Assembly (NCBI RefSeq): GCF_000025505.1
Contig: NC_013849.1
Span: 570,001-602,000, forward strand
DNA length: 32,000 nucleotides
Reading direction: 5' to 3'
From: Ferroglobus placidus DSM 10642
Lineage (GTDB): Archaea; Halobacteriota; Archaeoglobi; Archaeoglobales; Archaeoglobaceae
The stretch's first letter is position 1. Every line of letters starts with the position of its first letter. The position numbers were made by a program, and so were the translations under genes. The notes under the pieces are model-generated. The model was not told the origin of the DNA. It was given only the letters and a program-made list of their open reading frames with translations, and made no database searches. Below, in pieces: positions 4,743-25,246 of the stretch.

Positions 4743-4807
4743 AAACAGCTTAACAAAAACAAAAATTTTTAATTTTGTTTGCATAACATTACTTTGGGGT
4801 GAATAAT

Positions 4808-8600: not shown

Positions 8601-10856
8601 GACAGCACGGATCAAATCTGCATCGCCTGTCACAGCCTTAACGGTAGTTACGCATTAACAACTGCTAACTACGCTCACAGCCTCGATCCGGGAACTTCTG
8701 GCGGACCTGACTGTGTTGCCTGCCACGACATCGGTGGCTTCGCACCTAACGTTGATGTCATGGCTATGAAATCCGGAACTCATGCTAATCTGAACAGCGG
8801 TGCGTACAATGCAACCAAGCTGACAGACGAAATTGACAAAGCTTGCTGGGCATGCCATGGGGATGGAAGCGAGCCCGAGAAGCATCCGACCAGTTACAAG
8901 AATCCAAAGCAGTGCGAAGACTGTCATCTCAGCGGAGCATTCAATGCTCCAGTTGTAGCTAACCACTTCTCCAACGGAGCGAGCATAAAGGTGAATTCAA
9001 CATGCGTTGATTGCCACAGCAAGAACGAAATGCTTACCGCATACAGCGACTCTTCTGTAACAGTCATGTCAGCAGTTAGCCACTACGGCAAGAAGAGAGC
9101 AGACTTACTAACGCCTTCTCAGTACGACACTTACGACGTTAAATGCTCCTACTGCCACCAGAACACAACGACAGCATTCGCAGATGTCATGAAGAGCAGC
9201 TTCAGCTATAACGTGCCGGATCACTCAGATTCTCCGAACTCGCCGAGCTGTGTAGGATTGTGCCACGGATACGGAAGAATGCACGATGAAACGCTCAGCA
9301 AGAAGTCTCTGACAACTTCCAGGATGTGTCTCGACTGCCATTCTGCGGGAGGAAAGTTCAAGCACAACGGAACTGTTGACTGCTTCGTCTGCCACATGGA
9401 TCCCTCAGATTCGATAGGCAAGGCTCAAATACACGGAATTAAGTATCTCCAGAAAGACGGAAGCTTTGTAATGTATCAGCCAGCAAATGCGGTTGATTGC
9501 TACACATGCCATGCAACCGCCAACGTATCGCAAGTGCTGACATCTTATGGCTTAACAGCTCCTCAGATTACATGGTTGGGACACTCAACCGGGCAGAAGT
9601 GGGGAGTGTACTGGACAACAGATAACCAAGCCTGCGAATACTGTCATGGTGATACCAAGCACAACACAACTGCGCTTGGTAGAATCTCTCTCATAGCAGA
9701 CACATCAACGCTCGACAGCTTGGTATGCGCAGCTTGTCATGCAACAGACTCAGCCAACTACGCCGGAGATAAATGGTCTCCAACACCGCCAAGCATTGTC
9801 GGAACGGCTATAAATGAAGAATGGGTCAGCCACGACTTCCTCGGAGGAGATTACAGAGCCTCGAACTGTGCTGCATGCCACAATCCGGATGCTGCAGACG
9901 TTACCCAGCTTGCACACGACGTTAAAGCTGCAGCTGGAGGCTGTATTCAGTGTCATGCCAACCAGAGCGTTGCTTATGTTAACGTGAATGCAATGGGAAG
10001 ACACGCCAACGTTGACGGAGATGCAAATCTTACTGACAAAGACTGCACAACCTGCCATTTCGACATAAGCGGCAAATTCTCCGCTAACTACAAACCGATT
10101 GCCGGAGTTAACGTTTACAGCTGCGAAGACTGCCACGTTAACGGTAATCCGGTTAGCGTTCCGGCAGATGTGCAGATTTCGTCCTTCCAGCACGGTCTAA
10201 ACGACTGCAAGTCATGCCACATCGTCAGTTACGGATATCACTACGCTTCTCCGCTCGGTGATGTAGCAGCACTTCCAAGCTTCAGCTCGGATTATAGAAC
10301 GAATGAAGCAACGAGGGTTAACCTGTGCAACGACTGCCACCACAGAATGAACGCTGACGATGAGCCGTTCCACGCTCCCGGAATAACTCCAGCAATGGCG
10401 GGTTACTCCTCATGCGGCAGTGGAGGGTGGTGTCATGGTGGAAGCAGAGAAACGACGGATCCGCACTACGTTAAGCAGATATATCAATCGCCGTGGTTCT
10501 CATACTCGCTGAACATGCCCGATAACGTGTCCGGAAAGTTCAATGCATCTCTAAAGATATGGACAAACAACATACAGATGCACTACGGATATTACGAGGT
10601 GATTGACAGCTTCGGCAATGTAATCCTTAGAGCGAATCTCACTCCAGATGATGGAGAATGGGGACAGAGTTACGCAAACTGGGGAAGAGACAGCATTGAA
10701 AGCTTCACGATTTCAATCGATCCGTCTGGCTGGATGCCCGGCAACTACACCGTAAAGTTCTACGTGATGAGGGACGCTCCGAAAGTCGATCCGTCGAAGC
10801 CGTACTACATGAACGGCTACATACTGACTGTGAGCAAGCAGTTTGCAGTTCAGTAA
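5658..10856 (+). CDS. Giant secreted multihaem c-type cytochrome: 33 CXXCH plus 4 spacing variants, up to 37 haems
   Basis: The signal peptide is MNVGRILLLLTFVAVLAAVSA/AQE. Next come two Ig-like beta domains, a (PT)14 linker, and a Big/MG-like domain. The haem region starts at WWGCAWCH. I counted 33 CXXCH motifs plus CYDTCH, CTNSTCH, CVGLCH and CGSGGWCH. A C-terminal Ig-like domain follows. There are no Cys residues outside haem motifs. There is no TM or C-terminal anchor. Confidence 0.95.
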   Translation: MNVGRILLLLTFVAVLAAVSAAQEYDGSVAKVVILKNGVPELYFSKGDKVEFRVYSYVGDQKDLKLKLYNYKGDRFKEMRFSKKGDYYVAYWTADREGWIYYVITSRDKIRNIWGYIVVGNNDIGSIKLYKDGVESESFVQGDYVYVKIKTTDKDKVRRVLISNWAGDVRSLDGDEVEIISSTENELYFRFYLGNYLTEHLYPDKWASLRVETDRGIKASTPFFFGEAAPTPTPTPTPTPTPTPTPTPTPTPTPTPTAQGEVLKLSFDRLAVLDDPNSGSAASGFQNPPKSWGSDWWYGRATTITAYALVMNGTPVANAQVTFKLIAPDGSVKKQVTAYTDSSGLAKASFDLNNANFYGYWKIVAESGALSAEQTFVYNWWGCAWCHGNEKLTDHGTYTPKSPFVMGYDFHRNPKKGEHVDPIVDGRCTVCHQSYDAIPHDSYAMQGKDAIKNAPPADQYPAGIHKDKVQCEDCHEQSTVRYARPEVPGCYDTCHPLKNFNLTAIFTTTGYSVGGSYRSFYAYDVNTGEPAKAHTSQKTVPCLSCHNAAHNNTKPYVGADNSYTENEQCLSCHGYKHGTSVTNCVGCHGQDAHLVKAPKAGNCIECHKVGGFAPNVDVEAFNISVHANLNANAASSSGYPSVVGACWACHYNGTEPQSHDTAAFRNPKKCEDCHLSGNYGAPVVEEHIRFGRDITVNTYCTDCHSLGEMLNAFKDPEVTKNSTVSHYARKRIDLRTWDSGISDNCSYCHQNTTTVFSIVMSDVWSKNVPPHATNYPSPSCTNSTCHNSGLIHSSSLTKPTLTDTYCQNCHSKQFHNNAIDCSTCHLENGMPKNIHGIKYLTSSGTFTSNPSDAVDCTSCHQPGSSTSGILNAPVIPDPLKHSSDSSGQKWGSYWMTELESCYYCHGDTKHEAKALGNVSNLTLDPANVMNSSSLTTRWCYGCHVAGYQYYMGTSLNPQPPAIDVNNLGSANWLNHSSFVSADSTDQICIACHSLNGSYALTTANYAHSLDPGTSGGPDCVACHDIGGFAPNVDVMAMKSGTHANLNSGAYNATKLTDEIDKACWACHGDGSEPEKHPTSYKNPKQCEDCHLSGAFNAPVVANHFSNGASIKVNSTCVDCHSKNEMLTAYSDSSVTVMSAVSHYGKKRADLLTPSQYDTYDVKCSYCHQNTTTAFADVMKSSFSYNVPDHSDSPNSPSCVGLCHGYGRMHDETLSKKSLTTSRMCLDCHSAGGKFKHNGTVDCFVCHMDPSDSIGKAQIHGIKYLQKDGSFVMYQPANAVDCYTCHATANVSQVLTSYGLTAPQITWLGHSTGQKWGVYWTTDNQACEYCHGDTKHNTTALGRISLIADTSTLDSLVCAACHATDSANYAGDKWSPTPPSIVGTAINEEWVSHDFLGGDYRASNCAACHNPDAADVTQLAHDVKAAAGGCIQCHANQSVAYVNVNAMGRHANVDGDANLTDKDCTTCHFDISGKFSANYKPIAGVNVYSCEDCHVNGNPVSVPADVQISSFQHGLNDCKSCHIVSYGYHYASPLGDVAALPSFSSDYRTNEATRVNLCNDCHHRMNADDEPFHAPGITPAMAGYSSCGSGGWCHGGSRETTDPHYVKQIYQSPWFSYSLNMPDNVSGKFNASLKIWTNNIQMHYGYYEVIDSFGNVILRANLTPDDGEWGQSYANWGRDSIESFTISIDPSGWMPGNYTVKFYVMRDAPKVDPSKPYYMNGYILTVSKQFAVQ
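6345..6428 (+). repeat. (Pro-Thr)14 linker coding repeat
   Basis: It encodes PTPTPT...PT using mixed synonymous codons (CCA/CCG/CCT/CCC, ACT/ACA/ACC/ACG), so it is not a pure microsatellite. Confidence 0.9.
6774..7376 (+). repeat. ~603-bp block near-identical to 12543-13145 in giant cytochrome 2
   Basis: The offset is constant at 5769 nt with no indels. By eye I saw roughly 15 mismatches, almost all synonymous and clustered between ~6948 and ~7135. The last ~230 bp has one mismatch, giving F to L. The block covers haem motifs 1-5 plus CYDTCH. Confidence 0.85.
7458..8705 (+). repeat. Haem module copy A (~416 aa, 10 CXXCH plus 1 CX4CH)
   Basis: It runs from GNCIECHKVGGFAPNVDVEAF to QICIACHSLNG. 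It aligns position by position with copy B: CWACH, NPKxCEDCHLSG, CxDCH, SHYxxKRxDL, CSYCHQNTTT, IHGIKYL, GQKWGxYW, CxYCHGDTKH. Confidence 0.85.
8706..9941 (+). repeat. Haem module copy B (tandem duplicate of 7458-8705, diverged)
   Basis: It runs from PDCVACHDIGGFAPNVDVMAM to SNCAACHNPD. The first Cys codons of the two copies (7464 and 8712) are exactly 1248 nt apart. A third, truncated and degenerate start (GGCIQCHANQSVAYVNVNAMGRHAN) begins at ~9942. Confidence 0.85.
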
Positions 10857-10878: not shown

Positions 10879-12003
10879 TTATTTTAAAATTTTTCTCAAC
10901 ATTGCGGCTGAAGTAATTGAGAGGATTAATACTTCCACTCCAAGTGGGCTTTCTTTTGAAGTCTTTTCGTCGTTCCAGTATTTTACGGAAAAAGTCTCGG
11001 CTGGTATTTCGCTTTTGTTTACTATAGCCAGCCATATACTCCTGTTCTCCCTGAATATGGCTGACTGGTAAGCTACGATAACTCTGTCTTTTTCTATCAG
11101 AACGCTTTTTTGGTCGCATTTGAAGTTGAAAGGCTCTTCGAGCTGAGAAATGTACTCCACATTTCTCGACAGCTTTACAGGCTTGGTCCAGTTCACACCA
11201 TCTCTGCTGCTGATAAGATATACTTCCTCGTTGCCCTCCACTGTTGACGTGTAGGCAATCCAGATTCTCTCATCATCCGCCTTGGCATCGTTGTAGAGTG
11301 TGAAGTTTAGGGGAGGCGTGGAGGTTATTCTCGCGTGATTTTTCAGCTCGTAAGGTGAATCGCCATAGGCAATGAATATGTCGTGGTTGTTGAGGAGAGT
11401 CAGATTATCTTTGTCTCCTGTAAACTTCGCGTAGTTCATCCACCATTTTCCTTTGAATTCAAACAACTTTCCGAAAATGTATTCACCGTCTGGCGGAATT
11501 ACCACTTTCGCTTCGCTCCACGTTATGAAATCACGGCTTTCTCTTACGTAAATCCCGGTGCTTCCGTTCTCTTCAGCTACGCTGTACGTCAGCCAGAACT
11601 TTCCGCTTTTATCCTGATAAAGGTGTGGATACCAGTCTATCTTTTCGCTTTCCGCAACCGGATAAGGTTCGACCCAGTTCACACCATCGTAGCTGTAGGT
11701 CGCGTATATGTCGTAGTCGAATCCGTATTTTATCGACTCCGGATTTATTATCTCGTGCTTAACGTAAACGACTCTGAAAACTCCGTTTCTGTCGATGATA
11801 AACCACGGATGATAATCTCCCTGCTTCGTTCCGGGTATTTTCACAGGAGCGCTCCAGCTTTTTAAATCCTTCGAGCTTGTTATGTATATTCCGTCGTCGC
11901 CCTTGAAGACCATCCAGTAAGTGTCGTTAAATTTTTCCAGAACCGGATAACCTCCGTTGAACAGGTATATCAGCGTAACCAGAACAGCAGCAGTCTTCAG
12001 CAT
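10879..12003 (-). CDS. Secreted BNR/Asp-box repeat beta-propeller protein (sialidase-fold-like) with a C-terminal hydrophobic tail
   Basis: The N-terminal signal is MLKTAAVLVTLIYLFNGG. There are four Asp-box-like motifs: SSKDLKSWS, SYDGVNWV, SRDFITWS, SSRDGVNWT. The C-terminus is PLGVEVLILSITSAAMLRKILK. Confidence 0.75.
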   Translation of the reverse strand: MLKTAAVLVTLIYLFNGGYPVLEKFNDTYWMVFKGDDGIYITSSKDLKSWSAPVKIPGTKQGDYHPWFIIDRNGVFRVVYVKHEIINPESIKYGFDYDIYATYSYDGVNWVEPYPVAESEKIDWYPHLYQDKSGKFWLTYSVAEENGSTGIYVRESRDFITWSEAKVVIPPDGEYIFGKLFEFKGKWWMNYAKFTGDKDNLTLLNNHDIFIAYGDSPYELKNHARITSTPPLNFTLYNDAKADDERIWIAYTSTVEGNEEVYLISSRDGVNWTKPVKLSRNVEYISQLEEPFNFKCDQKSVLIEKDRVIVAYQSAIFRENRSIWLAIVNKSEIPAETFSVKYWNDEKTSKESPLGVEVLILSITSAAMLRKILK

Positions 12004-12098: not shown

Positions 12099-12110
12099 GG
12101 GGTGAATCCA

Positions 12111-15100
12111 ATGAAAACCCGCTTTTTAACTGAGGTAGCTTTATCAATTTTGCTTCTACTTGTAATCATCCCGATCACTGAGGCTCAGGAATTTAATGTA
12201 AAACTCTCTCTCGACAGGCTTGTTGTTCTTGACGATCCGAATTCTGGCAGTGCCGCTTCGGGATTTCAGAACCCGCCTAAAAGCTGGGACTCGGACTGGT
12301 GGTACGGAAGGGCAACGACGATAAAGGCGTACGCTGTAGTTCTTGGAGAAGAAGGTGCTTTGTCGGGTGTTCAGGTAACTTTTAGACTTATAAACCCGAA
12401 CGGTAATGTCGAATACACCACCACAGCAACGACCAACGCTGCGGGAATTGCGGAATTCGAATACGATATGAACAACAAGAATTACTACGGCTACTGGAAG
12501 GTTGAGGCTGAGGTAACCCTCGACGGAGTTACAAAGAGGGCGGAGCAAACCTTCGTTTACAACTGGTGGGGATGTGCGTGGTGTCATGGAAACGAGAAGC
12601 TGACAGACCACGGCACCTACACGCCGAAATCACCATTCGTAATGGGCTACGACTTTCACAGGAATCCGAAGAAGGGTGAGCATGTTGATCCTATAGTGGA
12701 CGGCAGGTGCACGGTGTGCCACCAGAGCTACGATGCAATTCCGCACGACAGCTACGCTATGCAAGGAAAAGATGCAATTAAGAACGCTCCTCCTGCCGAT
12801 CAGTATCCGGCTGGTATTCACAAAGATAAGGTTCAGTGCGAAGATTGTCATGAGCAATCGACGGTCAGATATGCTCGCCCTGAAGTTCCAGGCTGTTATG
12901 ACACGTGCCATCCACTAAAGAATTTCAACCTCACGGCAATTCTCACAACCACCGGCTACTCGGTTGGAGGCTCTTACAGATCCTTCTACGCCTACGATGT
13001 TAACACGGGAGAACCTGCTAAGGCTCACACATCTCAGAAAACCGTGCCCTGCTTGAGCTGCCACAACGCAGCTCATAACAACACCAAACCTTACGTCGGA
13101 GCAGACAACAGCTACACCGAAAACGAGCAGTGCCTGAGCTGCCACCTCAACGGTCAGCACTCCACAACAAATCCTGTTGATTGTGTTGACTGCCACAGTC
13201 AGGATGCCCATTCAATAAAGGTTGTGAAGAAGGGAGGAGGCTACGATTCTCCCTCTTCGAGCAATTCAGTACTTAAAAAGGATTGCGAGGAGTGTCACGT
13301 TTCAACAACCGGGAGCTTTTTCGAATCAAAAGGATACTCACCGAGGACTGACAGCTTTGGCAATAGCATAGCGAAGCACGCCGGAAAAGTTGATTGCAAA
13401 GACTGTCATGGAGATGAGAGCAGATTCCACAGAATAGCTTATCTGAGTTCTGACGGTAGTTTTGCTGACAAGCAGAGTGCATCGTACTGCTTCGACTGTC
13501 ACACGAATTCCGGAGCAAATTCTTACATAGAATCTAGAGGATACTATCCGCTAGCTATAACTTCCTTCCAGCATGGAAACGCGAGCTACGATGGTAAAAA
13601 CTGGGGCACTTACTGGAGTTCAGACAGAGAAGCATGTTACTACTGCCATCAGAGGTCTCCGCATGGAGATGTTAAAGGCAACGTTTCTGGACTGGATGTT
13701 AAAGCGGATTTATCTGGAAAAGCCTGTGCCGCATGTCACGTTAAAAGCTATTCGGGCTATATCGGAGACAGGTTGAACCCCGAACCTCCTGCAATTGACG
13801 TGAACAACACCGGCAGAGCTAAAAATTCAGCTGGAGAGGAATGGTATAACCATACGAGGTATCTTGAAGACTACAACGATGCAACGTGTTTTGGCTGTCA
13901 CGCACCTTCTCCGGACTTTCCGAGGGACTTCTACGCATTCGTCCACAACGTGGAAGAGGGATTAAGACCGGGGGCTGATTGCGCTTCTTGCCACGATCTG
14001 AACGAAAGACCGCCGAAAAGAGTGGATGTTTCAGCTTTTTCAAATTCGGTGCACGCCAATCTCAACAGCAACGCCTTAAACAGCACACCGGTAAATCCGC
14101 TGAGTAAAGCATGCTGGCTGTGTCATGGCGATGGGACTGAGCCGTCGGATCATCCCGACAACTATAAGAATCCGAAGAAGTGCGAAGATTGCCACCTCTC
14201 AGGAAATTACGGAGCTCCAGTTGTGGAGGAGCATATAAAGAGTGGAAAGCATGTTAAGGTTTCGGCGGAATGCTGGGACTGTCACGGCATTTCCGAGATG
14301 GTTGTTTTAAACTCGGACGAAGAAGGATCGAGTAAGGCTTTCGCAAGTCATTACGCGAAGCTGAGACAGGACTTATGGGTAAGAGGGTATTCGGGGGATG
14401 TCGGTCTGGATTGCTATTACTGTCACCAGAACGCAACATCGGCATTTAAAGCAGTAATGAAGAACGAGAATCACACCTACATGCCGGATCACGGTCTGAA
14501 TGACAGATCTTGTTGGGCTTGTCACGGGTTGGAGATGCATGTAAGATTGGACAAGCCTTCGGTTTCAAACACTTACTGCAAATCCTGTCATTCAGGCTAC
14601 GAGCTGCACAACGGAACTGTCAGCTGTTACGTCTGTCACATGGACGGAAGCGATACCACATACGACTCACCAAAAGCCCAGATTCACGGAATAAAGTACC
14701 CGTCTGCAAACGGCTACACTTCAGTAAAAAGCAAGGGGTGCTACGGATGCCATACGGGCAAGCTGAGCAAATCCACAAATGCCTGGGGAGTTTCTGTTCC
14801 AACAATTCCCGAATTCAGCCACAGCAACTATCCAAATAACGGAACGAGGTGGGGAGATTACTGGAATAGCGTTGATGATGCTTGCATATACTGTCACACC
14901 CCTGCCGTTCACAGCTCGAATTTGAAAGGAAACGTTTCGATTGTTAAAGGTTCGAACAGCTACAGAGCAGATTTAGCAAACTCATACTGGTGTTCCGCGT
15001 GCCACTACTCCTCGTACTCAGGATACAAAGGAGATTCCCTCAATCCTACGCCTCCTGACATCGCATCCTATTCAACCCCCTCAGACGGCATAAAGTGGTT

Positions 15101-17030
15101 CGATCACTCTTCCTATATCTCCTCAGATTATTCCGATGCGAAGTGCCTTGAGTGCCATGGAGAGAATGTCGTGAGAAGCAATGAGTTCGTCCATGCCGTT
15201 AAAGAAGGAGTGGGAGGAGCTTGCATGGATTGCCATACCGATCCTTATTATTCCTCGGTTGCTGTGAACGTTTCATCCTTTGGGAGGCATGCGAAGGTTG
15301 ATGGAAGAGAAGGCTTAGATGTCGATGACTGCAGGATCTGCCACTATTCTCCGTGGGAAATGCTCAGGAGTGGGTGGACTATCGTAAGCGTGACTTGCGA
15401 GGATTGTCATAAAGGAAACGTTCCAGAAGATGTCAAGATAACAGCTTTCCAGCACGGGAGCAACAGCTGTATTGATTGTCATGCGGGGGGCGGTTACGAG
15501 AAAGGTAAGCTTTACCACTATGACTTCTCCACGCCCTATGGATCTGTGAAGGATCCAGGGTGGAGCGAATGGAGCAAGAGCGTCGTTGACTGCTACGACT
15601 GCCATGTCAGCCATGCAAAGAGCGAGCCGTTCTACGCGATTGGAATAAGCAGCTACATGGCAACGAGCTTTTCATCCTGTGGCGGAGTTAACTGTCACGG
15701 AGGTGGAACTGTTCACAATGTCGTTAAAAGTCCGTACATGTATCCTCCGTTTGTCAGAGTCTCGATTGAGAGAAACATGGTACTCGAAGGAGAAACCGTT
15801 AGCGTTTCAGCCGATATATGGGGATACGACGTCCAGATTAACGATTCTTGGTATGAAGTGCTGGATGCAAAAGGCAACGTCCTTCTTTCCGGTAAAGCCT
15901 TACCGTCTGATGGCAGTTTCGGAGGACTCAAAAACGGATATGGATACGAGAGGGTTGAATTCAGCTTCAACGCAAACTTCGAACCCGGAGTTTACGAGGT
16001 AAGAGTGTATGCTGAGAAGGATACCGGTATGACTTCTTATGGCGAAGCCGAGCTCATTGTTGGGGCTGCTGGCAGCTCTGCTGCGAACTTCTACTTCGAA
16101 TCATGGAATCTCGACGGAACGCTGACGAACTGGGCTTTCGGAGGTAGCGGAACGCTTGAGAAGAGCAGCATTTCAAAGTCCGGATACTCTGCCAAGATCA
16201 CAGCAACCAGCGAGGCTTGGATCGAGAGCATAAAATTCCCTGTTGAAAGCAATAAAGAATACCTCGTAATCGTGTTCGCCAACTTCAGCAATAAGGTCGG
16301 TCTGACAGTGAAGAAGTGGAGCAATAATGCTCTACTGGAAACGACCCCAGAGGTCGTGGCTGAAGGAAATCCGGGAAGGTGGATAGCTTTTGGAACGGTG
16401 GTGAATTCCGGAAACGCCGACAATCTTTCAATACTGCTTAAGGTTTACAGCGGATACGCTTACTTCGACAACGTGTCTGTCGTAGCAGTTCCTCTGCTTG
16501 AGAACAGGGCAGTAAACGGGGAATTTGAAGAGGATGAAGATGCTTATGCGAGCTACGAAAAATCTGACGAGAACGTAAAAGCCTGGGAGCCGAAGAAGGT
16601 TAGCGGTTTCGTTTTGCCGGCAAAATATCCGGGGAGAGGTAGAGTTCTGGCTGTGCTTGGAACGGGATACTGGACTTCAGCGTATCAGGACGAAAGCTTC
16701 AGCACAGCTGCGAGAAGCTACGCAAGGGATTACGGGATAAGGATGTCTGGCGAATTCATCATCCTCGCGGACATCTACAAGTCATCCGAAGGTTTCGGAG
16801 GAGTTGAGCTGACATTCTGGGACTGGAGTTTCGATCAGGCGAAGAATAACCTTGTAGAGGATGGCTCTTACAAAGTTGGATTCTACGACAGTACCGACTG
16901 GAGAACTGTGGTAATCATAGACGACATGAATAATGCGAATTTGCTCCAAATAAAACTCAAGGGAGAGAACGTTAAAGAGCTAATGTTCGATAGAGTCAGA
17001 TGCTACTTGAACGAGGGAGTGGTAAACTAA
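12111..17030 (+). CDS. Giant secreted multihaem c-type cytochrome (29 CXXCH plus 2 variants) with a C-terminal Ig-like domain and two CBM4_9-like jelly-roll domains
   Basis: The track starts at GTG 12102. ATG 12111 is preferred (MKTRFLTEVALSILLLLVIIPITEA/QE). I counted 29 CXXCH plus CYDTCH and CGGVNCH. After the last haem motif (~15690) comes an Ig-like domain. Two domains then follow, starting N.xFE..W-like and ending YFDNVSVV and MFDRVRCY. There is no TM anchor. Confidence 0.95.
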   Translation: MKTRFLTEVALSILLLLVIIPITEAQEFNVKLSLDRLVVLDDPNSGSAASGFQNPPKSWDSDWWYGRATTIKAYAVVLGEEGALSGVQVTFRLINPNGNVEYTTTATTNAAGIAEFEYDMNNKNYYGYWKVEAEVTLDGVTKRAEQTFVYNWWGCAWCHGNEKLTDHGTYTPKSPFVMGYDFHRNPKKGEHVDPIVDGRCTVCHQSYDAIPHDSYAMQGKDAIKNAPPADQYPAGIHKDKVQCEDCHEQSTVRYARPEVPGCYDTCHPLKNFNLTAILTTTGYSVGGSYRSFYAYDVNTGEPAKAHTSQKTVPCLSCHNAAHNNTKPYVGADNSYTENEQCLSCHLNGQHSTTNPVDCVDCHSQDAHSIKVVKKGGGYDSPSSSNSVLKKDCEECHVSTTGSFFESKGYSPRTDSFGNSIAKHAGKVDCKDCHGDESRFHRIAYLSSDGSFADKQSASYCFDCHTNSGANSYIESRGYYPLAITSFQHGNASYDGKNWGTYWSSDREACYYCHQRSPHGDVKGNVSGLDVKADLSGKACAACHVKSYSGYIGDRLNPEPPAIDVNNTGRAKNSAGEEWYNHTRYLEDYNDATCFGCHAPSPDFPRDFYAFVHNVEEGLRPGADCASCHDLNERPPKRVDVSAFSNSVHANLNSNALNSTPVNPLSKACWLCHGDGTEPSDHPDNYKNPKKCEDCHLSGNYGAPVVEEHIKSGKHVKVSAECWDCHGISEMVVLNSDEEGSSKAFASHYAKLRQDLWVRGYSGDVGLDCYYCHQNATSAFKAVMKNENHTYMPDHGLNDRSCWACHGLEMHVRLDKPSVSNTYCKSCHSGYELHNGTVSCYVCHMDGSDTTYDSPKAQIHGIKYPSANGYTSVKSKGCYGCHTGKLSKSTNAWGVSVPTIPEFSHSNYPNNGTRWGDYWNSVDDACIYCHTPAVHSSNLKGNVSIVKGSNSYRADLANSYWCSACHYSSYSGYKGDSLNPTPPDIASYSTPSDGIKWFDHSSYISSDYSDAKCLECHGENVVRSNEFVHAVKEGVGGACMDCHTDPYYSSVAVNVSSFGRHAKVDGREGLDVDDCRICHYSPWEMLRSGWTIVSVTCEDCHKGNVPEDVKITAFQHGSNSCIDCHAGGGYEKGKLYHYDFSTPYGSVKDPGWSEWSKSVVDCYDCHVSHAKSEPFYAIGISSYMATSFSSCGGVNCHGGGTVHNVVKSPYMYPPFVRVSIERNMVLEGETVSVSADIWGYDVQINDSWYEVLDAKGNVLLSGKALPSDGSFGGLKNGYGYERVEFSFNANFEPGVYEVRVYAEKDTGMTSYGEAELIVGAAGSSAANFYFESWNLDGTLTNWAFGGSGTLEKSSISKSGYSAKITATSEAWIESIKFPVESNKEYLVIVFANFSNKVGLTVKKWSNNALLETTPEVVAEGNPGRWIAFGTVVNSGNADNLSILLKVYSGYAYFDNVSVVAVPLLENRAVNGEFEEDEDAYASYEKSDENVKAWEPKKVSGFVLPAKYPGRGRVLAVLGTGYWTSAYQDESFSTAARSYARDYGIRMSGEFIILADIYKSSEGFGGVELTFWDWSFDQAKNNLVEDGSYKVGFYDSTDWRTVVIIDDMNNANLLQIKLKGENVKELMFDRVRCYLNEGVVN
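12543..13145 (+). repeat. Partner of the 6774-7376 near-identical block
   Basis: See the 6774-7376 feature. A second, shorter similar patch is 12201-12335 versus 6447-6580 (LDDPNSGSAASGFQNPPKSW). A ~60-bp patch at 14167-14235 matches 7651-7720 (NPKKCEDCHLSGNYGAPVVEEH). Confidence 0.85.
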
Positions 17031-17058: not shown

Positions 17059-17787
17059 ATGATGAAGAGAACTCTTACTTTAATCCTTGTAATTTTTTCG
17101 TTTTCGATTTACATACTTCCGTCTACCGTCTCATTATTCCCCGGAGAGCATTTATGGTACGATCTTGAGCAATCCGGAACGGGAGTTCCGTGCGTTAAAT
17201 GTCATGCCGACATTTACGATGAACTCAATAATTCTGCCTATCACAAAATATGGGGAGATCCGAACAAAGCTGACAGCCAAGATTGCTACACGTGCCACAC
17301 GATAAACCAAAGTATAACCTATGCCGATGCTGATATTGGTGTTACAGGCAAAGAGGCTCACGCAGCTTCGACTATAAACTGCGGATACTGCCACTTCAAC
17401 TCGTCGATAGCCTCTGCAATGGGTACAATTGTGGCTGGAGGTTTTGGAAAGAGCGATTTGACTGGAGACACAGGAGAGGTTGAAGCTCACAGAGAGTTTC
17501 TGGAGAGCGCTATGCTTGACGATCCGGTCTACGGATCTAATTTATTGGAGAAGGAAAACGAGGCTTGTATAGCTTGCCATTCTGCTGTTCCAGTAAAAAT
17601 TCACTTCGCTCACAGGGAAAAGCTGAGCTTCAGGGCTGAGAAGAACAGCAAGGGATTGTGGAACCATCCGAGCTTTGGGTCTTCTGGCTACGTTAATACG
17701 ACCGTCTGGGGCAATGCGATGGGAAGCGGAGGTTTTTACAACAATTCAACCACCAAAAAGGCTTGGGGTGATGCCACATGGCCTTGA
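17059..17787 (+). CDS. Tetrahaem c-type cytochrome with an N-terminal signal or anchor segment (paralogue 3)
   Basis: CVKCH, CYTCH, CGYCH, CIACH. The N-terminus is MMKRTLTLILVIFSFSIYILPSTVSLFPGEHLWY. The C-terminus TVWGNAMGSGGFYNNSTTKKAWGDATWP is shared with paralogues 1 and 2. It lies only 28 nt after giant 2, so it is probably co-transcribed. Confidence 0.92.
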   Translation: MMKRTLTLILVIFSFSIYILPSTVSLFPGEHLWYDLEQSGTGVPCVKCHADIYDELNNSAYHKIWGDPNKADSQDCYTCHTINQSITYADADIGVTGKEAHAASTINCGYCHFNSSIASAMGTIVAGGFGKSDLTGDTGEVEAHREFLESAMLDDPVYGSNLLEKENEACIACHSAVPVKIHFAHREKLSFRAEKNSKGLWNHPSFGSSGYVNTTVWGNAMGSGGFYNNSTTKKAWGDATWP

Positions 17788-18404
17788 AAAAGTTCTTACT
17801 GCTTTTGATGATAGCTGTAGCCTCTTTCAGCATAGTCAAAACGACCTCCCTATTCGTTGGGCAGCACTTCTTCTATGACATCTCCTCCGGCTACAACGAG
17901 AAATGTTTGAAATGTCATGCTGATATTTACGATGAAATGCTCTTCACACCCCATCATCGCTTAGTTGATGGAGAGGCGGGATTGAGCGGAAAGGAATGCT
18001 ACGTCTGCCACAGAAGCGAGGATGTTCAGTACGGCAACGCTTCAACCCCAGGAAAAGAGGCTCATTCAGCGAGCATCATGTACTGCGGAAACTGCCACCT
18101 CAATGCAACGATAGCGGCAAAGTACAACGCTCCTCTCGCTGACGACATATACAACACAAAAGAGGTCCACAAGCTGCTTGCCTTTCACGCCTCTTTGGAT
18201 TACTCTACAACGGGAAGCGATTTGCTGAGAAAAGAAAGCGAAGCCTGCGTAGCGTGTCACGCTGATGTTAGAGTAAACATTACGTTCGTGAGCGACAACG
18301 AGACGACCATTACCGTCAGCAACCTTGACAGGGGCGGTTATTCGGCTTACTCAGTGGATAATGTTGTTATATCCGAATTCAAGCAGTGGAGCGTGGAAAA
18401 ATGA
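17778..18404 (+). CDS. Tetrahaem c-type cytochrome with an N-terminal signal or anchor segment (paralogue 4; lacks the TWP tail)
   Basis: CLKCH, CYVCH, CGNCH, CVACH. The N-terminus is MALKKFLLLLMIAVASFSIVKTTSLFVGQHFFY. The start overlaps the previous gene by 10 nt. Confidence 0.9.
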   Translation: MALKKFLLLLMIAVASFSIVKTTSLFVGQHFFYDISSGYNEKCLKCHADIYDEMLFTPHHRLVDGEAGLSGKECYVCHRSEDVQYGNASTPGKEAHSASIMYCGNCHLNATIAAKYNAPLADDIYNTKEVHKLLAFHASLDYSTTGSDLLRKESEACVACHADVRVNITFVSDNETTITVSNLDRGGYSAYSVDNVVISEFKQWSVEK

Positions 18405-19555
18405 GGATGCACTTGCTTTTAATAGGCTTAATCGTATTTGCCGTAGCTCTAATCTACTCCACTCCATCGGTCTCAGTTCTGTACGGCAGCCACAAGCTTT
18501 ACAACTTAACAGGAGCTGGAAACGATGTCGATTGCGTTTCGTGCCATCCTCAGGCTGCCGACGAACTTTCTCAATCTGCTTACCACAAAACTCTAACCTG
18601 CGAGGACTGTCATCGAAATCCCTACATGAAGAGCGTCGCTTTCGACAACGGCAGCGTTGTGACCAAAGGTAGCTACGCACACGCAGCCTACAAGCCGAGG
18701 TGTCTGGACTGTCATTCGCAGACGAGCATAACGAAAGCTGACGGAACTGTCGTTTCAGTGAGAAAAGCCGACGCTTTCGGAGATCCCGGTTATGGGAGCG
18801 ATTATTCTGCCCATAAAAAGTTCGTGGAGGGGTCGCTGAACTACAACATCTTTGAGGGAGAGAACGAAGCGTGCATCTCATGTCATACGGATTACAAAAT
18901 CAGGTTCGAATTTATAAGACCGCTGTACGTTGAATACACGATTCAAAAAGATGCTAACGGAAACTGGTATGTTGATAGCAGCTCGATAACCTACGGAGCT
19001 GACAACACAACTCTAATTCTCAAACCGGGAAGCGGAAAGAAACATCTCTTTATTCCGCTCAACCAGATCAAATGCGAAAACTGCCATTCAGACATATGGG
19101 CAACTGTTCAAACGGGATACAACCATATAACCACCGGATGGAAAAATCCTCCGATCCACGACTACACGAGAGTTGGAACTTCTTACTCAAACGTAACAGA
19201 ATACTGCCAGCTTTCATGCCACAATCCGATTGTTTCAGGTTCTCCTCCGGCTGCTTTGAGCGAGACAGTGCATGCTGCAAGGAGATTGTCCTGCTATGAT
19301 TGCCACAACACTGCCGGGAATAATGGAGTATTTACCGTTTATTCAAAACCCGGCAATATTTATAGAAATCCACCTTGGAGCGACAGAGCTATGGGCAACT
19401 TCGACGATTACGCAATAAACGCTCCTCTTTTCATTCAGGGAAACACATGCGTTGACTGTAAGGAGGTTAGACAATCTACTGGAACATGGTATACGCCACC
19501 GGTAACCTTCAAGTCCTATTTCGAGCCAACTACAGTCCCACCAAGCAAGATATGA
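18401..19555 (+). CDS. Hexa- to octa-haem c-type cytochrome with an N-terminal signal or anchor segment (paralogue 5, extended)
   Basis: CVSCH, CEDCH, CLDCH, CISCH, CENCH and CYDCH, plus CQLSCH (CX3CH) and CVDCK (CXXCK). The track starts at GTG 18386. I prefer ATG 18401, which forms an ATGA overlap with the upstream stop (MRMHLLLIGLIVFAVALIYSTPSVSVLYGSHKLY). Confidence 0.9.
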   Translation: MRMHLLLIGLIVFAVALIYSTPSVSVLYGSHKLYNLTGAGNDVDCVSCHPQAADELSQSAYHKTLTCEDCHRNPYMKSVAFDNGSVVTKGSYAHAAYKPRCLDCHSQTSITKADGTVVSVRKADAFGDPGYGSDYSAHKKFVEGSLNYNIFEGENEACISCHTDYKIRFEFIRPLYVEYTIQKDANGNWYVDSSSITYGADNTTLILKPGSGKKHLFIPLNQIKCENCHSDIWATVQTGYNHITTGWKNPPIHDYTRVGTSYSNVTEYCQLSCHNPIVSGSPPAALSETVHAARRLSCYDCHNTAGNNGVFTVYSKPGNIYRNPPWSDRAMGNFDDYAINAPLFIQGNTCVDCKEVRQSTGTWYTPPVTFKSYFEPTTVPPSKI

Positions 19556-19611: not shown

Positions 19612-22600
19612 ATGAGGCTGAAAGCAATCGCCTTGGCAATAATAATTTTCTTCTCACTTGCTTATCTGACAGAAGCGAAAGGTGTTCCGTCGAAAGTGAT
19701 CGTGTGGACTGATAAGAAGTTGTATCATCCGTGGTATATCTATTCCGATAGAGGAATGAAGACAGGGAATGTTGATTATGCCACGATGAAAGTTTACGTT
19801 GCAGTCTTAGATGACGATGGAAACTTCATGTCTGGCAGAAATGTTAGGGTGTACATAGTGGATGAATACAGATATGACCACTACGATAAAGGAGATTCGT
19901 CTTATCATCACAATAATCAATCTACGGGTGGCTTATTTATTAATACATTTATATCTCTATCTGATTCAGATGGGGACGGTGTTTATGAGGGCACAGTCAG
20001 CTTAGATAGTTATTTAGATAACGATTATTCTAACTTAAAGGACGATCACCTAAGGATAAAAGTTGTGGCTGAAGATGTGGATTCTGGTTTAATCGGTTTA
20101 ACATACATACTTGCATCGCCTTTAAGCTGTATATGTCATAAGGATTATTCGGACAAATACGATCCCACAAATAAAGAACCGACGAAAGACCTGGCCCATG
20201 GAGATCATGTGAATGAACAACAAGATAAACCCTCTGATATATGTACGGTTTGTCATTATGGCTATGAGCACTTCTACGAAAACATTACTGATACGATTCC
20301 AGATGGTTACAAGGATGTGCACTTTTATAAACAGAATCCACCTGATGTGACCTACTCTGTTAAGGGAGGTGAGTTTGCAAATTATGATTGGAACTCAACT
20401 TGGATTAATACTTCACTGAACTCCTTCTCGTGGGCGGAAAAAAGCGGAGGTGGAGCACCATACTGTGCCAACTGCCACATTAACTCATCAACCGGGCAGG
20501 TTTACGATTGGGACTCAAGCAGCGAAATAGTTCAGTGCACGAACTGCCACAGCGAAACAGGGATGGAAAATACAGTTCCACCTTCAGCTTACAACTCTTA
20601 TGGCACGGCTGGTAAAGGCGACGTTTCCCACTACAACTCTTCGAGAAGCGGAGCGTTAGGAAGGGGTGTTGCCTGCGGCGTCTGTCACAATTCGGTTCAC
20701 AGCCTGCAACTTCCCAACGAGAGCTATAAAGAATACTACATAGCCGAGCAGTGCTGGAGCTGTCATAATGTGAGTGGTGGCATTGATCTTGATTCTTCTG
20801 ACTCAATTCCTAACAGTGTTTCCACCCATCCTGAGGTGACAAATGATTGCAGAGCTTGCCATCTCGATAATAACCTTGCTTTAGATTCTCATTCCGTTCC
20901 AGTAGCCGAACCTCCATCTCCGAACTGCGTTAAGTGCCACGACATTGGAGGAAAATCCCTCGTGCATGTTGACGTTTCAGCCATGAACACCACAGAGAAC
21001 AGACACTACAACCTGAACAACAGAACTGATCCGACTGCCAACGGCTTGAGGTGGGAAAACAGACTTTGCTGGGCGTGTCACGGAGAAGACGACAACGGAG
21101 ATGGAGTGATAGAGTATTCCGAGCAGCCCCCCGATCAGCATCCCGCTAAATACAGAAATCCGAGGATGTGCACTGACTGCCACAAAAACGCTACTTACGG
21201 AAGCTTAATCGGAGCCCCTCAGGTTTCGAGGCACACTTGGTACGATAGCGTAATAAATACTCCCGCTGTAACTTACTGTGGTGACTGTCACGGATTGCCG
21301 GAAAACGTTCTGCCAAATGCGGATGAAGAATTTACGTACGAAAGCGCTGCAGCCCACTATGGAAGATACAGATACGATCTGATAAATCTCTTAGAAACCG
21401 ATCCTGACGCATTCTGCAACTACTGTCACCAGAACGAAACATCTCCTTATCCCTTCGCGAATCCAGAGAACAAAATAAGACCCGAGCATTCGAACACCGG
21501 CACGCCTCCGGAGTGCGTTGAGTGTCACGGTCTGGGCAACATACACAGCACAAATCTTACCATTCCTTCTGTAAACGACCAGCTCTGCCAGAAGTGCCAT
21601 CCCGATAAGCAACCACACAACGGAACGATAGGTTGCGTCGAATGTCACATGAACAACACTCCAAGCTACATCCACCCGATGACGTTTTTGCAGCCTGACG
21701 GCAGCGTTTCCACGTCGAAGCTAACTGCCGTAAGTTGCTACGACTGCCACAAGTCTAACAAGCTCGACAACCTGCTGATAAGCTGGGGAGCAACGAGGTT
21801 GCCAAAAGTTAAGAATCAGCACCACAGCGAGTCTCCCATAAACGGCTCGAAGTGGAACGACTACTGGAGCTACCAGCCGAGGTATCTTACGTTCGCATCC
21901 TCCTACAGCGTCTCAGAAGGCTACGTTCAGGATTTCAGCAACATGATGAGCGTGAGCAACAACTTCTCCATTATTTACGAAGCTCCGAAGGGCGGAATCG
22001 CGGCTTTCAAGGGAACGTTTCCGTCTAATCAGGGATTCGACTCGAACTATGATGGATGGAGCTACAGTGCTGAATCTCCCGCAACAGCCGGATACGATCC
22101 ATCTTACGGAAATCCAGCCGGCTCGATCTACTCCTACATCTACACAAGGCTGAGAACAACGAGCTATTACTCGACCGAATGGGTTTCTGCATTCGTTTAC
22201 GAGAAGAACAAACCGGTAGCCTACGCCAAGTTCAGCTTCGATTACAGAGTAACGGCAACCACAAGGCTGAATGAAATTAAAATCACAGCATACATCGAGG
22301 ATCCTGATGGAATAAGGTATCAGGTTTATCAGGTTTCCAAAACCTCTCCGGATGTGACCTGGAATAAAGTGGAAGTTGAGATGTCTAACCCCGATTCCGT
22401 CTTCTCAAAAAGCGGAGTTTACAAGATCATTCTGAAGACGGAGTTCGGATTGACCACATACAAGGGAAGCAAGGAAGGCAAGGTTTACTTTGACAACGTG
22501 AAGCTTGAAATTAACGAAGAGGAGTATCAGCAGTACGAAGTCGTCGTGCAATTTGAAAACGTCCCTAACACTCAGTACACCCTCAACCTCGAGGGAGAGT

Positions 22601-25206
22601 ATCTCGTTAGTAAGGAGCCGGCTGTTCTCTACATCTACGATTATTCTTCAAATTCCTGGGGAAGAAGTTTCGAGTTAAACGCCACAGCCTGGAAGAAGTT
22701 CAGAATTCAGCTGAATCCAAACGAGTATCAGGGTGGTGTAGTCAAGATAAAAATTGACGACAAAAACAAGGGAATTGACACGATTCAGGATTACGTGAAA
22801 TTCAAATATCTGCTTGTTCAAAGCGACACCGGCAAACCCTATCCGTGCGAGCAGTGTCACGCCTCAGAAAAACACGAAAATCCAGCTCTTGGAAGCATAA
22901 TAGCGATTATGGGTAGCAACAAGATAAACACGACCGATCTGAACAACTCTTACTGGTGCATCCAGTGCCACTGGAAGAATGCTGCAAACTACACCGAGAT
23001 GATAAATGAATACAACTTAACGAGGGGATTACCGGTTCCGCCCGAAATAACCAACGGAACTTACGCCTATCCGGTGGCGAGGGACGGGACTAAGCATGTG
23101 GATCACACAGACTGGATCAATCAGTACGGCTACTCAGACAGAGCGTGTGCTTTATGCCACGCAACCTACTTCGTTGACGGGGTTACGACGACTACTGAAA
23201 TCATCCACGACACTGAGGTTGGAACGAACTGGACGAGAGACTACCTCTTCGCTGAGTGCATAAACTGCCATTCAACCGACGTCAACACTTCCAACTTCGG
23301 CAGACACGTAAACCTTGAGAGTGACGGAGGATTAACCTACAAGGATTGTATTAAATGCCATTACAAGCTGGGAGGGATGGGATATAACTACACCGCTACG
23401 GTGGGACTGAATCTGTACGATTGCAGGAGCTGCCACACGCCAGAGGGAGAGTCCAATTTAAAACCTGCCGATTCAAATCTCATAATTGTCAACTTCTCTC
23501 ACGGAACCAATCTCTGCTCCAATTGCCACTATCCGAAGGGAGACTACCACAACGATTATTCCGATCCTCTCGGCACTGTCGAAGCTCCCGGGTGGAGCGG
23601 ATGGGTTAACGGCACTCCTGTAAGCTGTAACGACTGTCACTTTGAGAGAAACCTTGATGACGAGCCATTCCATGCCCCGGGAATAAGCAGGTTTAAAGCT
23701 TCTTACAGCTCCTGTTCCGGTTCAAACTGCCACGGAGACGGTAGGATACATAGCGTAAAGCCAAGAGATCTGGATGTTGAGCCATTCGTAAGCGTAAGCC
23801 TGAACAGAACGTGGATAAATCCGGGAGAATCCATACTTGTTACAGCAAAGGTAAGTGGTAAGGGGTCACAGATCAGCTACGCCTATTATGAGCTGTTGGA
23901 CATGGACGGCAAGGTAATCTCTTCAGCAGATCTCTATCCAAAAGACGGTGAGTGGGGTGGCGTTGATAGTACTATTTTAGGAAACGGTTACGAGGAGTTT
24001 GAGTTCGTGATAAATGGCTCGGTAACTTCTGCACTTAAAGCCGGAATTTACAAAGTTAGAGTTACTGCAATGCAGGACGCTCCTAAGAGCAGAGAAGGAA
24101 GTTACTACCCAAGAAACGGAGCTTACGGAAGTGGTTACGCTGAATTCAGCGTCGGAGAGGCTGGAAGCCTTGCCACAAACTTCGACTTTGAGGCTTTAAA
24201 CGTTTCCGGGTGGTTCGTTAACTGGAAGAAAGTAATTGTTTCAGGAAACCCCGTTATTGAGAGCAGTGATGCGGTATATCACTCTTACAACCACTCCCTT
24301 CACATATCCTCTTCAGCGGGAGATGACTGCTATGTTCAGTCGATAAACGTGAGCGTGACTGAAGGAGAGAAATACTTACTTCTCGTGTGGGTTAAAGGAA
24401 GTGCCGATTTTGCCGGGATAAGCATTAATCAGTGGAATTCATCAAACCTTGTCTCTTCAACCGATCCTGTAGGTATAATCGGCTCCACAAGCGACTGGAC
24501 TCAGTTCGGAATAATCTTCGATGCATTAGGAGATTTGATAAACGTTCAGCTGCACGTTAAAGGAAACGCTGACATCTATTTCGACGACGTCAAGTTATTG
24601 AGAATGCCTTCATACAAAGTGGTCGGACCAGTAAACGGAGATTTCGAATATAATGAGGATGATCTTACCCTGAAAAACGCTGAGGAGTGGCAACAGTATT
24701 ATGGATACGTTAACGGAAAAGATCCGGCTGTAAAAGCCTGGGAGCCTTACACGAGTGATGCGGGAATAAATGTGAGCAAAGTATATTCCGGAGTTCAGGC
24801 TGTCGAGATCGACGGAACAGGCTTCTGGGTTTCACCGGGAGGTTACGACAGGATGCAGGATGACAGCAGTGGAGTTTGGTTTAACGCTTCGAAGTATTAC
24901 GTTGACAAATACGGCATCTTCGTGGATAAACCGTACTACCTCGTCTCGTTTGCGATGTTCGCAGATAGAATTAATGACTACGCAGGAATGAACATTACGT
25001 TCTGGGTATACGATAAAAGCAATGGTGATTACTTCCAGATTTCTGATCTCGGCTTCGTTGTCGGAACGAGGGAAAACATGTCCGACTACGTTGTCGGAGT
25101 TGTCAATGTCACCATACCCTTCATCTCCAACCTGATGGAGATAAGGCTTGAAGCATCTAACAGCCACGTGGTGTTCGACGATGTCAGGATTTATGAAGTT
25201 CAGTAA
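19612..25206 (+). CDS. Giant secreted multihaem c-type cytochrome (23 CXXCH plus 1 CX4CH) with an internal jelly-roll insertion and a C-terminal Ig-like domain plus two CBM4_9-like domains
   Basis: The signal is MRLKAIALAIIIFFSLAYLTEA/KG. An N-terminal Ig-like domain follows, then 15 CXXCH motifs and a ~326-aa Cys-free insert (21868-22845). After the insert come 8 CXXCH motifs plus CSGSNCH and an Ig-like domain. The two C-terminal domains end in YFDDVKLL and VFDDVRIY. Confidence 0.95.
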   Translation: MRLKAIALAIIIFFSLAYLTEAKGVPSKVIVWTDKKLYHPWYIYSDRGMKTGNVDYATMKVYVAVLDDDGNFMSGRNVRVYIVDEYRYDHYDKGDSSYHHNNQSTGGLFINTFISLSDSDGDGVYEGTVSLDSYLDNDYSNLKDDHLRIKVVAEDVDSGLIGLTYILASPLSCICHKDYSDKYDPTNKEPTKDLAHGDHVNEQQDKPSDICTVCHYGYEHFYENITDTIPDGYKDVHFYKQNPPDVTYSVKGGEFANYDWNSTWINTSLNSFSWAEKSGGGAPYCANCHINSSTGQVYDWDSSSEIVQCTNCHSETGMENTVPPSAYNSYGTAGKGDVSHYNSSRSGALGRGVACGVCHNSVHSLQLPNESYKEYYIAEQCWSCHNVSGGIDLDSSDSIPNSVSTHPEVTNDCRACHLDNNLALDSHSVPVAEPPSPNCVKCHDIGGKSLVHVDVSAMNTTENRHYNLNNRTDPTANGLRWENRLCWACHGEDDNGDGVIEYSEQPPDQHPAKYRNPRMCTDCHKNATYGSLIGAPQVSRHTWYDSVINTPAVTYCGDCHGLPENVLPNADEEFTYESAAAHYGRYRYDLINLLETDPDAFCNYCHQNETSPYPFANPENKIRPEHSNTGTPPECVECHGLGNIHSTNLTIPSVNDQLCQKCHPDKQPHNGTIGCVECHMNNTPSYIHPMTFLQPDGSVSTSKLTAVSCYDCHKSNKLDNLLISWGATRLPKVKNQHHSESPINGSKWNDYWSYQPRYLTFASSYSVSEGYVQDFSNMMSVSNNFSIIYEAPKGGIAAFKGTFPSNQGFDSNYDGWSYSAESPATAGYDPSYGNPAGSIYSYIYTRLRTTSYYSTEWVSAFVYEKNKPVAYAKFSFDYRVTATTRLNEIKITAYIEDPDGIRYQVYQVSKTSPDVTWNKVEVEMSNPDSVFSKSGVYKIILKTEFGLTTYKGSKEGKVYFDNVKLEINEEEYQQYEVVVQFENVPNTQYTLNLEGEYLVSKEPAVLYIYDYSSNSWGRSFELNATAWKKFRIQLNPNEYQGGVVKIKIDDKNKGIDTIQDYVKFKYLLVQSDTGKPYPCEQCHASEKHENPALGSIIAIMGSNKINTTDLNNSYWCIQCHWKNAANYTEMINEYNLTRGLPVPPEITNGTYAYPVARDGTKHVDHTDWINQYGYSDRACALCHATYFVDGVTTTTEIIHDTEVGTNWTRDYLFAECINCHSTDVNTSNFGRHVNLESDGGLTYKDCIKCHYKLGGMGYNYTATVGLNLYDCRSCHTPEGESNLKPADSNLIIVNFSHGTNLCSNCHYPKGDYHNDYSDPLGTVEAPGWSGWVNGTPVSCNDCHFERNLDDEPFHAPGISRFKASYSSCSGSNCHGDGRIHSVKPRDLDVEPFVSVSLNRTWINPGESILVTAKVSGKGSQISYAYYELLDMDGKVISSADLYPKDGEWGGVDSTILGNGYEEFEFVINGSVTSALKAGIYKVRVTAMQDAPKSREGSYYPRNGAYGSGYAEFSVGEAGSLATNFDFEALNVSGWFVNWKKVIVSGNPVIESSDAVYHSYNHSLHISSSAGDDCYVQSINVSVTEGEKYLLLVWVKGSADFAGISINQWNSSNLVSSTDPVGIIGSTSDWTQFGIIFDALGDLINVQLHVKGNADIYFDDVKLLRMPSYKVVGPVNGDFEYNEDDLTLKNAEEWQQYYGYVNGKDPAVKAWEPYTSDAGINVSKVYSGVQAVEIDGTGFWVSPGGYDRMQDDSSGVWFNASKYYVDKYGIFVDKPYYLVSFAMFADRINDYAGMNITFWVYDKSNGDYFQISDLGFVVGTRENMSDYVVGVVNVTIPFISNLMEIRLEASNSHVVFDDVRIYEVQ

Positions 25207-25246
25207 TGGAAAAAACTTAAAGTCCATTTCAACATTTCGAAGTTCC

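Follow-up and report, generated by a model that had tools for sequence, protein, structure and literature searches.

Two giant multihaem cytochromes of Ferroglobus placidus carry a C-terminal tandem of CBM_4_9-type jelly-roll domains, a putative tether

In Shewanella, a porin complex of the outer membrane holds the cytochromes MtrC and OmcA, which are lipoproteins; archaea have no such complex. The giant extracellular cytochromes MHC-A and MHC-B of anaerobic methanotrophic archaea (ANME) carry 20–80 haems, and their haem-free accessory domains are thought to place the haem wire within or across the envelope (Chadwick et al. 2022, PMC9012536). The question touched here is by what means archaea, having no outer membrane, keep such proteins at the cell, orient them and aim them; ANME archaea appear to use S-layer domains. 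We analysed a 32,000-nucleotide stretch of the genome of Ferroglobus placidus DSM 10642 (NC_013849.1, positions 570,001–602,000), referred to below as the window, which encodes three giant multihaem cytochromes, G1, G2 and G3. The last two end in a pair of consecutive haem-free domains, A and B, of the type found in carbohydrate-binding modules (CBMs), and it is the nature and the possible role of this pair that we describe. All coordinates are those of the window; the giants and their domains are encoded on the forward strand.

G2 (12102–17030) and G3 (19612–25206) are secreted giant multihaem c-type cytochromes by motif count, signal peptide and homology. G2 contains 29 CXXCH and 2 CX3-4CH motifs and G3 contains 23 and 1, which agrees with the 24–31 haems given in a preliminary description of this DNA made from the sequence. 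The open reading frame (ORF) of G2 is 100% identical to Ferp_0672 (P0001), whose start codon in the database is the ATG at 12111, three codons in. That of G3 is 100% identical to ADC64847.1/WP_012965191.1, which NCBI and UniProt name "Carbohydrate-binding CenC domain protein"; its locus tag, Ferp_0676, was inferred from gene order and a table in PMC4683180. Both proteins begin with a typical Sec signal peptide and a good cleavage site, with small residues at −3 and −1. Besides this N-terminal signal peptide no hydrophobic segment was detected in either protein, and hence no C-terminal membrane anchor; the Pfam scan gave no S-layer domain (PF07752), and no sorting signal was found. The Pfam matches in the giants were to Cytochrome_C7, c3_2 and CIII, and in G1 also to Mtrc-MtrF_II-IV. 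Apart from the CBM_4_9-type module, G2 and G3 matched only cytochrome families and an MG2-like domain. Protein searches showed that their haem regions are homologous to those of giants from Geoglobus, Methanoperedens and ANME. The last CXXCH motif lies at residue 1164 in G2 and at residue 1339 in G3.

The tandem of A and B forms the last ~320–350 residues of G2 and G3, after the last haem motif and a haem-free beta domain (15702–16067 in G2, 23737–24159 in G3). In G2, domain A comprises residues 1323–1468 (146 residues; 16068–16505) and domain B residues 1469–1642 (174 residues; 16506–17027). The corresponding domains of G3 are residues 1517–1671 (155 residues; 24160–24624) and residues 1672–1864 (193 residues; 24625–25203). 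Two domains of ~140–180 residues had been proposed for each giant, and the motifs quoted in support were all present and in frame: ANFYFE (residue 1328) and YFDNV (residue 1454) in G2-A, NGEFE (residue 1472) and MFDRV (residue 1628) in G2-B, TNFDFE (residue 1522) and YFDDV (residue 1656) in G3-A, and NGDFE (residue 1675) and VFDDV (residue 1854) in G3-B. The first motif of G3 starts exactly at nucleotide 24175, as had been given, and that of G2 at 16083, two nucleotides ahead of the proposed 16085. The domains of the two giants are related pairwise (BLASTP E 1e-13 and 28% identity for A; E 4e-10 and 25% identity for B). Chance motifs or non-coding sequence were considered as the origin of A and B, and are ruled out by the homology statistics. 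The beta domain that precedes A is shared more widely: it matches between G2 and G3 with an E value of 5e-19, and both copies match the C-terminal end of G1 (10398–10853; E 1e-10 for G2 and 7e-13 for G3; BLASTP). The label "Ig-like" previously given to this domain was not confirmed by Pfam, in which there was no significant match and the best were PKD (E 0.11) and Wzt_C (E 0.16). G1 does end after the shared domain, as had been noted. A six-frame scan of the window with hidden Markov models (HMMs) found A and B in G2 and G3 only, with no copy in G1, and a G1-type protein of Geoglobus (P0010) stops at the same point.

Domain A was related to the CBM_4_9 family in three ways. When scored alone, G3-A matched the Pfam model (PF02018) with 27.6 bits (E 4e-6, profile positions 6–130 of 136), for a gathering cut-off of 25.9 bits; scored inside the whole protein it reached 22.7 bits. 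In the Pfam check suggested in the preliminary description, the cut-off was thus reached by G3-A, when scored alone, and there was no direct match for G2-A, G2-B or G3-B, and among the 10 members of the A+B family PF02018 was matched in two. Secondly, a search of 1.84 billion representative proteins with an A+B profile yielded about 20 weak matches limited to the domain-A part; of eight that were inspected, seven hold 1–5 CBM_4_9 modules, beside SLH, FG-GAP, Big or fn3 domains. Thirdly, we built a profile from 41 modules that were gathered with the domain-A HMM and that Pfam independently calls CBM_4_9. This profile scored G3-A with 88 bits and G2-A with 49 bits (E 6e-15), and its comparison with domain A by hhalign gave 99.7%. 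Sequence searches against solved structures returned nothing significant, the best matches being PapE (E 0.055, spurious) and the CBM of a GH10 protein (4mgq, E 0.08). Overall, domain A can be assigned with high confidence as a divergent CBM_4_9 module. Its invariant residues among the 10 homologues are essentially framework positions.

Domain B is missed by profile–sequence methods and has no match in Pfam or NCBIfam. In profile–profile comparisons it was related to domain A (hhalign probability 94%, E 2e-8) and to the 41-module CBM_4_9 profile, which was built without any B sequence (96.7%, E 4e-10). Two insertions set B apart from the generic module: one follows the first strand, and the other, GxGYW...D...Y, contains a short helix. 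It is therefore described here as a clade-specific derivative of the fold of A with inserted loops and a short helix, which is very probably correct. The NGxFE...W start and the FDDV end align with the first and the last strand in the consensus of generic CBM_4_9 modules and are invariant in the 10 homologues. Motifs of this kind had been read as characteristic of CBM4/9; they hold as a signature of the fold framework, and not as one of a ligand site, since generic CBM_4_9 modules have them too. CBM4-type modules hold a structural Ca2+, to whose binding the Asp of the last strand contributes. Besides the terminal FDxV, the residues of B that are invariant across the homologues are KAWEP, GxGYW, D and Y (K174, W176, E177, P178, G201, G203, W205, D211 and Y221 in alignment numbering). 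This cluster is invariant although the G2 and G3 paralogues are only ~25% identical in B, and by inference from the alignment it is the best candidate for a ligand site. No Cys, His or Met is invariant in A or B, and for that reason a redox-cofactor role is unlikely. Haem b binding of the DOMON or CBM9-like type was considered separately and rejected; it would call for invariant His, Met or Cys, and no such structures were among the structural matches.

An AlphaFold2 model of G2 residues 1320–1642, calculated from the 10-sequence alignment, shows two all-beta domains (mean predicted local distance difference test score (pLDDT) 81.2; predicted template-modelling score 0.84). The pLDDT is about 90–97 in A and mostly 70–95 in B from KAWEP onward, and B contains one short helix. 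The best Foldseek match in the PDB was the CBM22-1/CBM22-2 tandem of the xylanase Xyn10C (4xup; E 1.7e-9, 368 columns), followed by CBM-like domains of GH101 enzymes, the Cry1Ac protoxin and Vip3 toxins, and then by Bacteroides SGBP-B. For a single module, the porphyran-binding CBM 8xmz was matched (template-modelling score 0.71, root-mean-square deviation 3.6 Å, 133 columns). As CBM22 and CBM4 fall in one Pfam family, the fold prediction is supported for all four domains, and the earlier proposal of a jelly-roll or CBM fold is borne out by Pfam (for G3-A), profile comparison, and AlphaFold with Foldseek. The xylanase match and the public name of G3 might be taken to indicate the classical role of a CBM, i.e. 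the targeting of an enzyme to a polysaccharide for its degradation. Neither G2 and G3 nor the scanned neighbouring genes contain a glycoside hydrolase or other carbohydrate-active domain; the rest of both proteins is haem-binding. F. placidus is not known as a polysaccharide degrader. The classical role was excluded from further consideration because no carbohydrate-active enzyme is attached, and we regard it as highly improbable.

What, then, could the tandem be for? The preliminary description suggested targeting to a mineral surface, the S-layer or glycan envelope, or a partner cell, which is a plausible conjecture. Once the signal peptide had been cleaved off, G2 and G3 would have no membrane anchor, S-layer domain or sorting signal, and their retention and orientation would call for a non-covalent tether. 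A and B as a pair are probably a binding or tethering module in the general sense. The explanation that we somewhat favour overall is that the pair is a non-catalytic, cofactor-free jelly-roll tandem, derived from CBM_4_9 modules, which acts as a lectin-like putative tether. It would anchor the haem chain at one end to a surface that bears polymers, with the invariant loop cluster of domain B as the candidate contact site. The putative ligand could be a glycan of the organism's own envelope or matrix, either the N-glycans of S-layer glycoproteins or an exopolysaccharide, an identification that we offer tentatively and as the less probable part of the proposal.

Several observations weigh against a lectin-like tether. 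Three of the four domains (G2-A, G2-B and G3-B) are without a direct Pfam match, and the stretch between A and B that includes the NGEFE strand (G2 residues 1467–1492) is the only poorly modelled one, with a pLDDT of 29–39. The NGxFE and FDDV motifs are, as judged from the alignments, fold framework and not specificity determinants, and the lack of family-specific invariant surface residues in A argues against a strongly conserved ligand site in that domain. Leaving aside a sub-threshold BNR-like propeller (see below), no carbohydrate-active enzyme domain was found by Pfam in G2 and G3, and no gene for such an enzyme or for glycan metabolism among the scanned neighbours. G1 is presumably retained without A and B, and the domains shared by the three giants may thus do the retention. 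CBM-like jelly rolls are also purely structural elsewhere, as in the Cry1Ac protoxin, and by analogy A and B might be so too. Because the signal peptide is the only hydrophobic segment, neither end of G2 or G3 can be assigned as the cell-proximal one, and the "distal" position of the tandem in the preliminary description is unproven. Finally, part of the result is already known: the jelly-roll fold itself, and the public CenC-like annotation of one of the four domains.

The distribution of the tandem is narrow. In the search of 1.84 billion representatives, the full pair was present in only four clusters (P0001, P0059, P0007 and P0003), and one further match (P0060) was a domain-B fragment. 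In total the pair was found in 10 proteins, at the C-terminus and always behind the same beta domain. Two of these are the F. placidus proteins Ferp_0672 and G3; two are their orthologues in Geoglobus acetivorans (P0002, 62% identity; P0059, 74% identity), whose accession numbers are four apart, which suggests that the genes are spaced alike. The Archaeoglobi metagenome-assembled genome (MAG) JdFR-42 encodes P0004 (locus L001), and P0003, P0005, P0006, P0007 and P0012 come from metagenomes or MAGs. The clusters with a traceable source are Archaeoglobi giants, and no A+B pair was present in the homologues of the haem regions retrieved from Methanoperedens, ANME and Methanocellales. In a word-indexed search, the C-terminal 320 residues of G2 gave no match, not even to the identical Ferp_0672, which was retrieved with the whole protein as query; we take this as an index artefact and not as evidence of absence, and negative results of such searches for the C-terminal parts of very long proteins are not reliable.

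That the pair is confined to relatives of the giants of the Fe(III)-respiring Archaeoglobi Ferroglobus and Geoglobus speaks for what is the main alternative to an envelope glycan, namely that A and B bind the surface of an Fe(III) (oxyhydr)oxide or its organic coatings and keep the terminal haems close enough to the acceptor for electron transfer, as in the "distal" targeting of the preliminary description. Each of the four domains is acidic (pI 4.2–4.9, net charge −3 to −16), which would favour adsorption to iron oxides, as these are near-neutral or positively charged at pH 7. F. placidus requires direct contact with Fe(III) oxide (PMC8280799), and Ferp_0672 has been implicated in Fe(III) reduction, according to PMC13104607, which cites Smith et al. 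2015. The same source equally implicates Ferp_0670, that is G1, which is without the pair. Moreover, the whole proteins are acidic, and the charge is thus not specific to A and B; the literature search gave no precedent for CBM_4_9-type modules on iron minerals; neither domain has a hematite-type Ser/Thr-Pro-Ser/Thr motif; and the orientation of the giants is not fixed by the sequence. Mineral adhesion is accordingly considered unlikely, though not negligible, next to a tether that binds a glycan. If either were true, envelope glycan or mineral binding, A and B would define the polarity of the haem wire.

The genes around the giants raise another alternative. Small multihaem cytochrome genes surround them in the window (3961–4707, 4799–5566, 17059–17787, 17778–18404 and 18386–19555), and small cytochromes are encoded downstream of the A+B giants in all four loci compared. 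In three of the four, a membrane-anchored BNR-like propeller gene lies upstream of the A+B giant and divergent from it. In the window it encodes a 374-residue protein (10879–12003, reverse strand; divergent from G2) with hydrophobic segments at both termini and a sub-threshold match to BNR_2, a sialidase-like propeller (30.3 bits against a cut-off of 31.4). Homologues with 41–48% identity occupy the same position in L001 and L003, and not in L002; this protein may be a partner of the giant cytochrome. G3 is followed by a 176-residue ORF without a Pfam match (25148–25678) and by the gene of a 386-residue PKD-domain protein (25651–26811). As homologues of both occur in L002 downstream of the giant and the small cytochromes, they appear to belong to a conserved cytochrome island. 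The conserved synteny with the BNR-like membrane protein and the small cytochromes would fit a structural or protein–protein role, in which A and B serve in packing, oligomerisation or docking (to other giants, small cytochromes or the BNR-like propeller) or cap the haem chain. The absence of conserved surface residues in domain A points the same way, as do the CBM-like jelly rolls with a packaging role (Cry1Ac protoxin, Vip3) among the best structural matches. The invariant KAWEP/GxGYW/D/Y cluster of B resembles a ligand site more than a packing surface, although conservation of this kind might be found in a protein interface too. We consider a structural role of this kind improbable, about as much so as adhesion to a mineral.

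A further haem-free region was found in G3 that is absent from the preliminary description. It is an insert of ~340 residues (residues ~739–1078; 21826–22845) between the CXXCH motifs at residues 709 and 1079, nested in a haem repeat, with the W-x-D-Y-W loop before it and the following CXXCH after it. The first half runs from FDSNYDGW to VYFDNVKLE (a YFDNV-type motif at residue 959) and so has the same signature as A and B. NCBIfam has no family for this insert or for the A+B pair. The AlphaFold model of the insert has a pLDDT of 63 (70–94 in the core), and its structural matches are SGBP-B (E 3.5e-6), the MAM domains of meprin, a CBM22 tandem and PNGase F. Tentatively, and on the basis of this model, the insert may consist of a third jelly-roll-like module followed by a second beta domain. 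Geoglobus and several giants of the Methanoperedens or Methanocellales type have the insert at the corresponding site, and a gap of 360–490 residues between haem motifs was observed at the same place in P0059, P0085, P0087, P0088, P0084 and P0089. One could speculate that domain B is a new specificity class on a CBM scaffold which recognises Fe(III) oxide or a specific S-layer glycan and thereby sets the polarity and the contact point of the 30-haem wire. We think this rather improbable; if it were true, B would be the first module dedicated to targeting in archaeal extracellular electron transfer, and the nested jelly roll of G3 would be a second contact point.

G1 (5658–10856), which has 33 CXXCH and 3 CX3-4CH motifs and is Ferp_0670 by gene order and the table in PMC4683180, differs from G2 also at the N-terminus. 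It has an extra haem-free region there (residues ~23–228), followed by a (PT)n linker (residues ~229–257, nucleotides 6342–6428; 5658–6428 altogether), and both are absent from G2. This region may be a counterpart accessory binding module at the opposite end of the protein. G1 and G2 also share a block of 609 bp (6768–7376 and 12537–13145) at 97.2% nucleotide identity, and shorter blocks at 96–98% identity (6447–6553 and 12201–12307; 7653–7714 and 14169–14230). The identity of these blocks is far above that of the rest of the genes, a pattern that suggests recent gene conversion between the paralogous giants.

A search of the accessible literature for CBM, CenC or galactose-binding domains on multihaem cytochromes returned no paper that discusses the domains described here. 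New with respect to the public annotation are the assignment of G2-A, the recognition of both B domains as a derivative confined to one clade, the third module nested in G3, the narrow distribution of the pair and the contrast with the S-layer giants of ANME. The gain over current knowledge is moderate: the tandem offers a tractable handle on the positioning of the haem wire and is not a surprise in kind. If they bind envelope glycans or the mineral, A and B would be small, expressible and haem-free handles (~150–190 residues) for binding, localisation and structural work.

Of the systems described, the closest in fold are the CBM22-1/CBM22-2 modules of Xyn10C from Paenibacillus barcinonensis (4xup) and the CBM4 modules of the CenC type, which like A and B are consecutive jelly rolls of ~150 residues with NGxFE and FDDV strands. 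These modules sit on a glycoside hydrolase, whereas those of G2 and G3 sit on a cytochrome with 23–31 haems, and the identity is ~10–12%; domain B differs further in its extra loops, its helix and the clade-specific invariant cluster, and goes unrecognised by the Pfam model. Bacteroides SGBP-B and, in their CBM-like C-terminal domains, Vip3 and Cry1Ac are further non-enzymatic surface or secreted proteins with jelly rolls, but their partner domains are unrelated, and their roles (receptor or glycan binding, crystal packing) are not transferable to G2 and G3. Like the giants, MtrC and OmcA of Shewanella join haem domains to haem-free beta domains, as terminal Fe(III) reductases of the cell surface. 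Their beta-barrel domains I and III alternate with the haem domains and belong to a type other than CBM_4_9. The accessory modules that Pfam recognises in other giant archaeal cytochromes are S-layer, carboxypeptidase-regulatory-like, beta-helix and fn3 domains. P0055, a giant cytochrome encoded in a MAG of the Methanosarcinales, does carry a CBM-type jelly roll, a CBM_11 domain (PF03425, residues 53–180; 30.9 bits against a cut-off of 27), but this is of another CBM family and is a single N-terminal copy instead of a C-terminal tandem. From the sequence it looks like an independent fusion, and its presence on an unrelated protein indicates that a CBM-type jelly roll has been joined to a giant cytochrome more than once. 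Comparable in overall design are MHC-A and MHC-B of ANME, which are also giant archaeal extracellular cytochromes with haem-free accessory domains and have homologous haem regions (Chadwick et al. 2022, PMC9012536). They have an S-layer domain (PF07752) and a C-terminal membrane anchor, and in place of these domains the Archaeoglobi giants G2 and G3 carry CBM-type jelly rolls.

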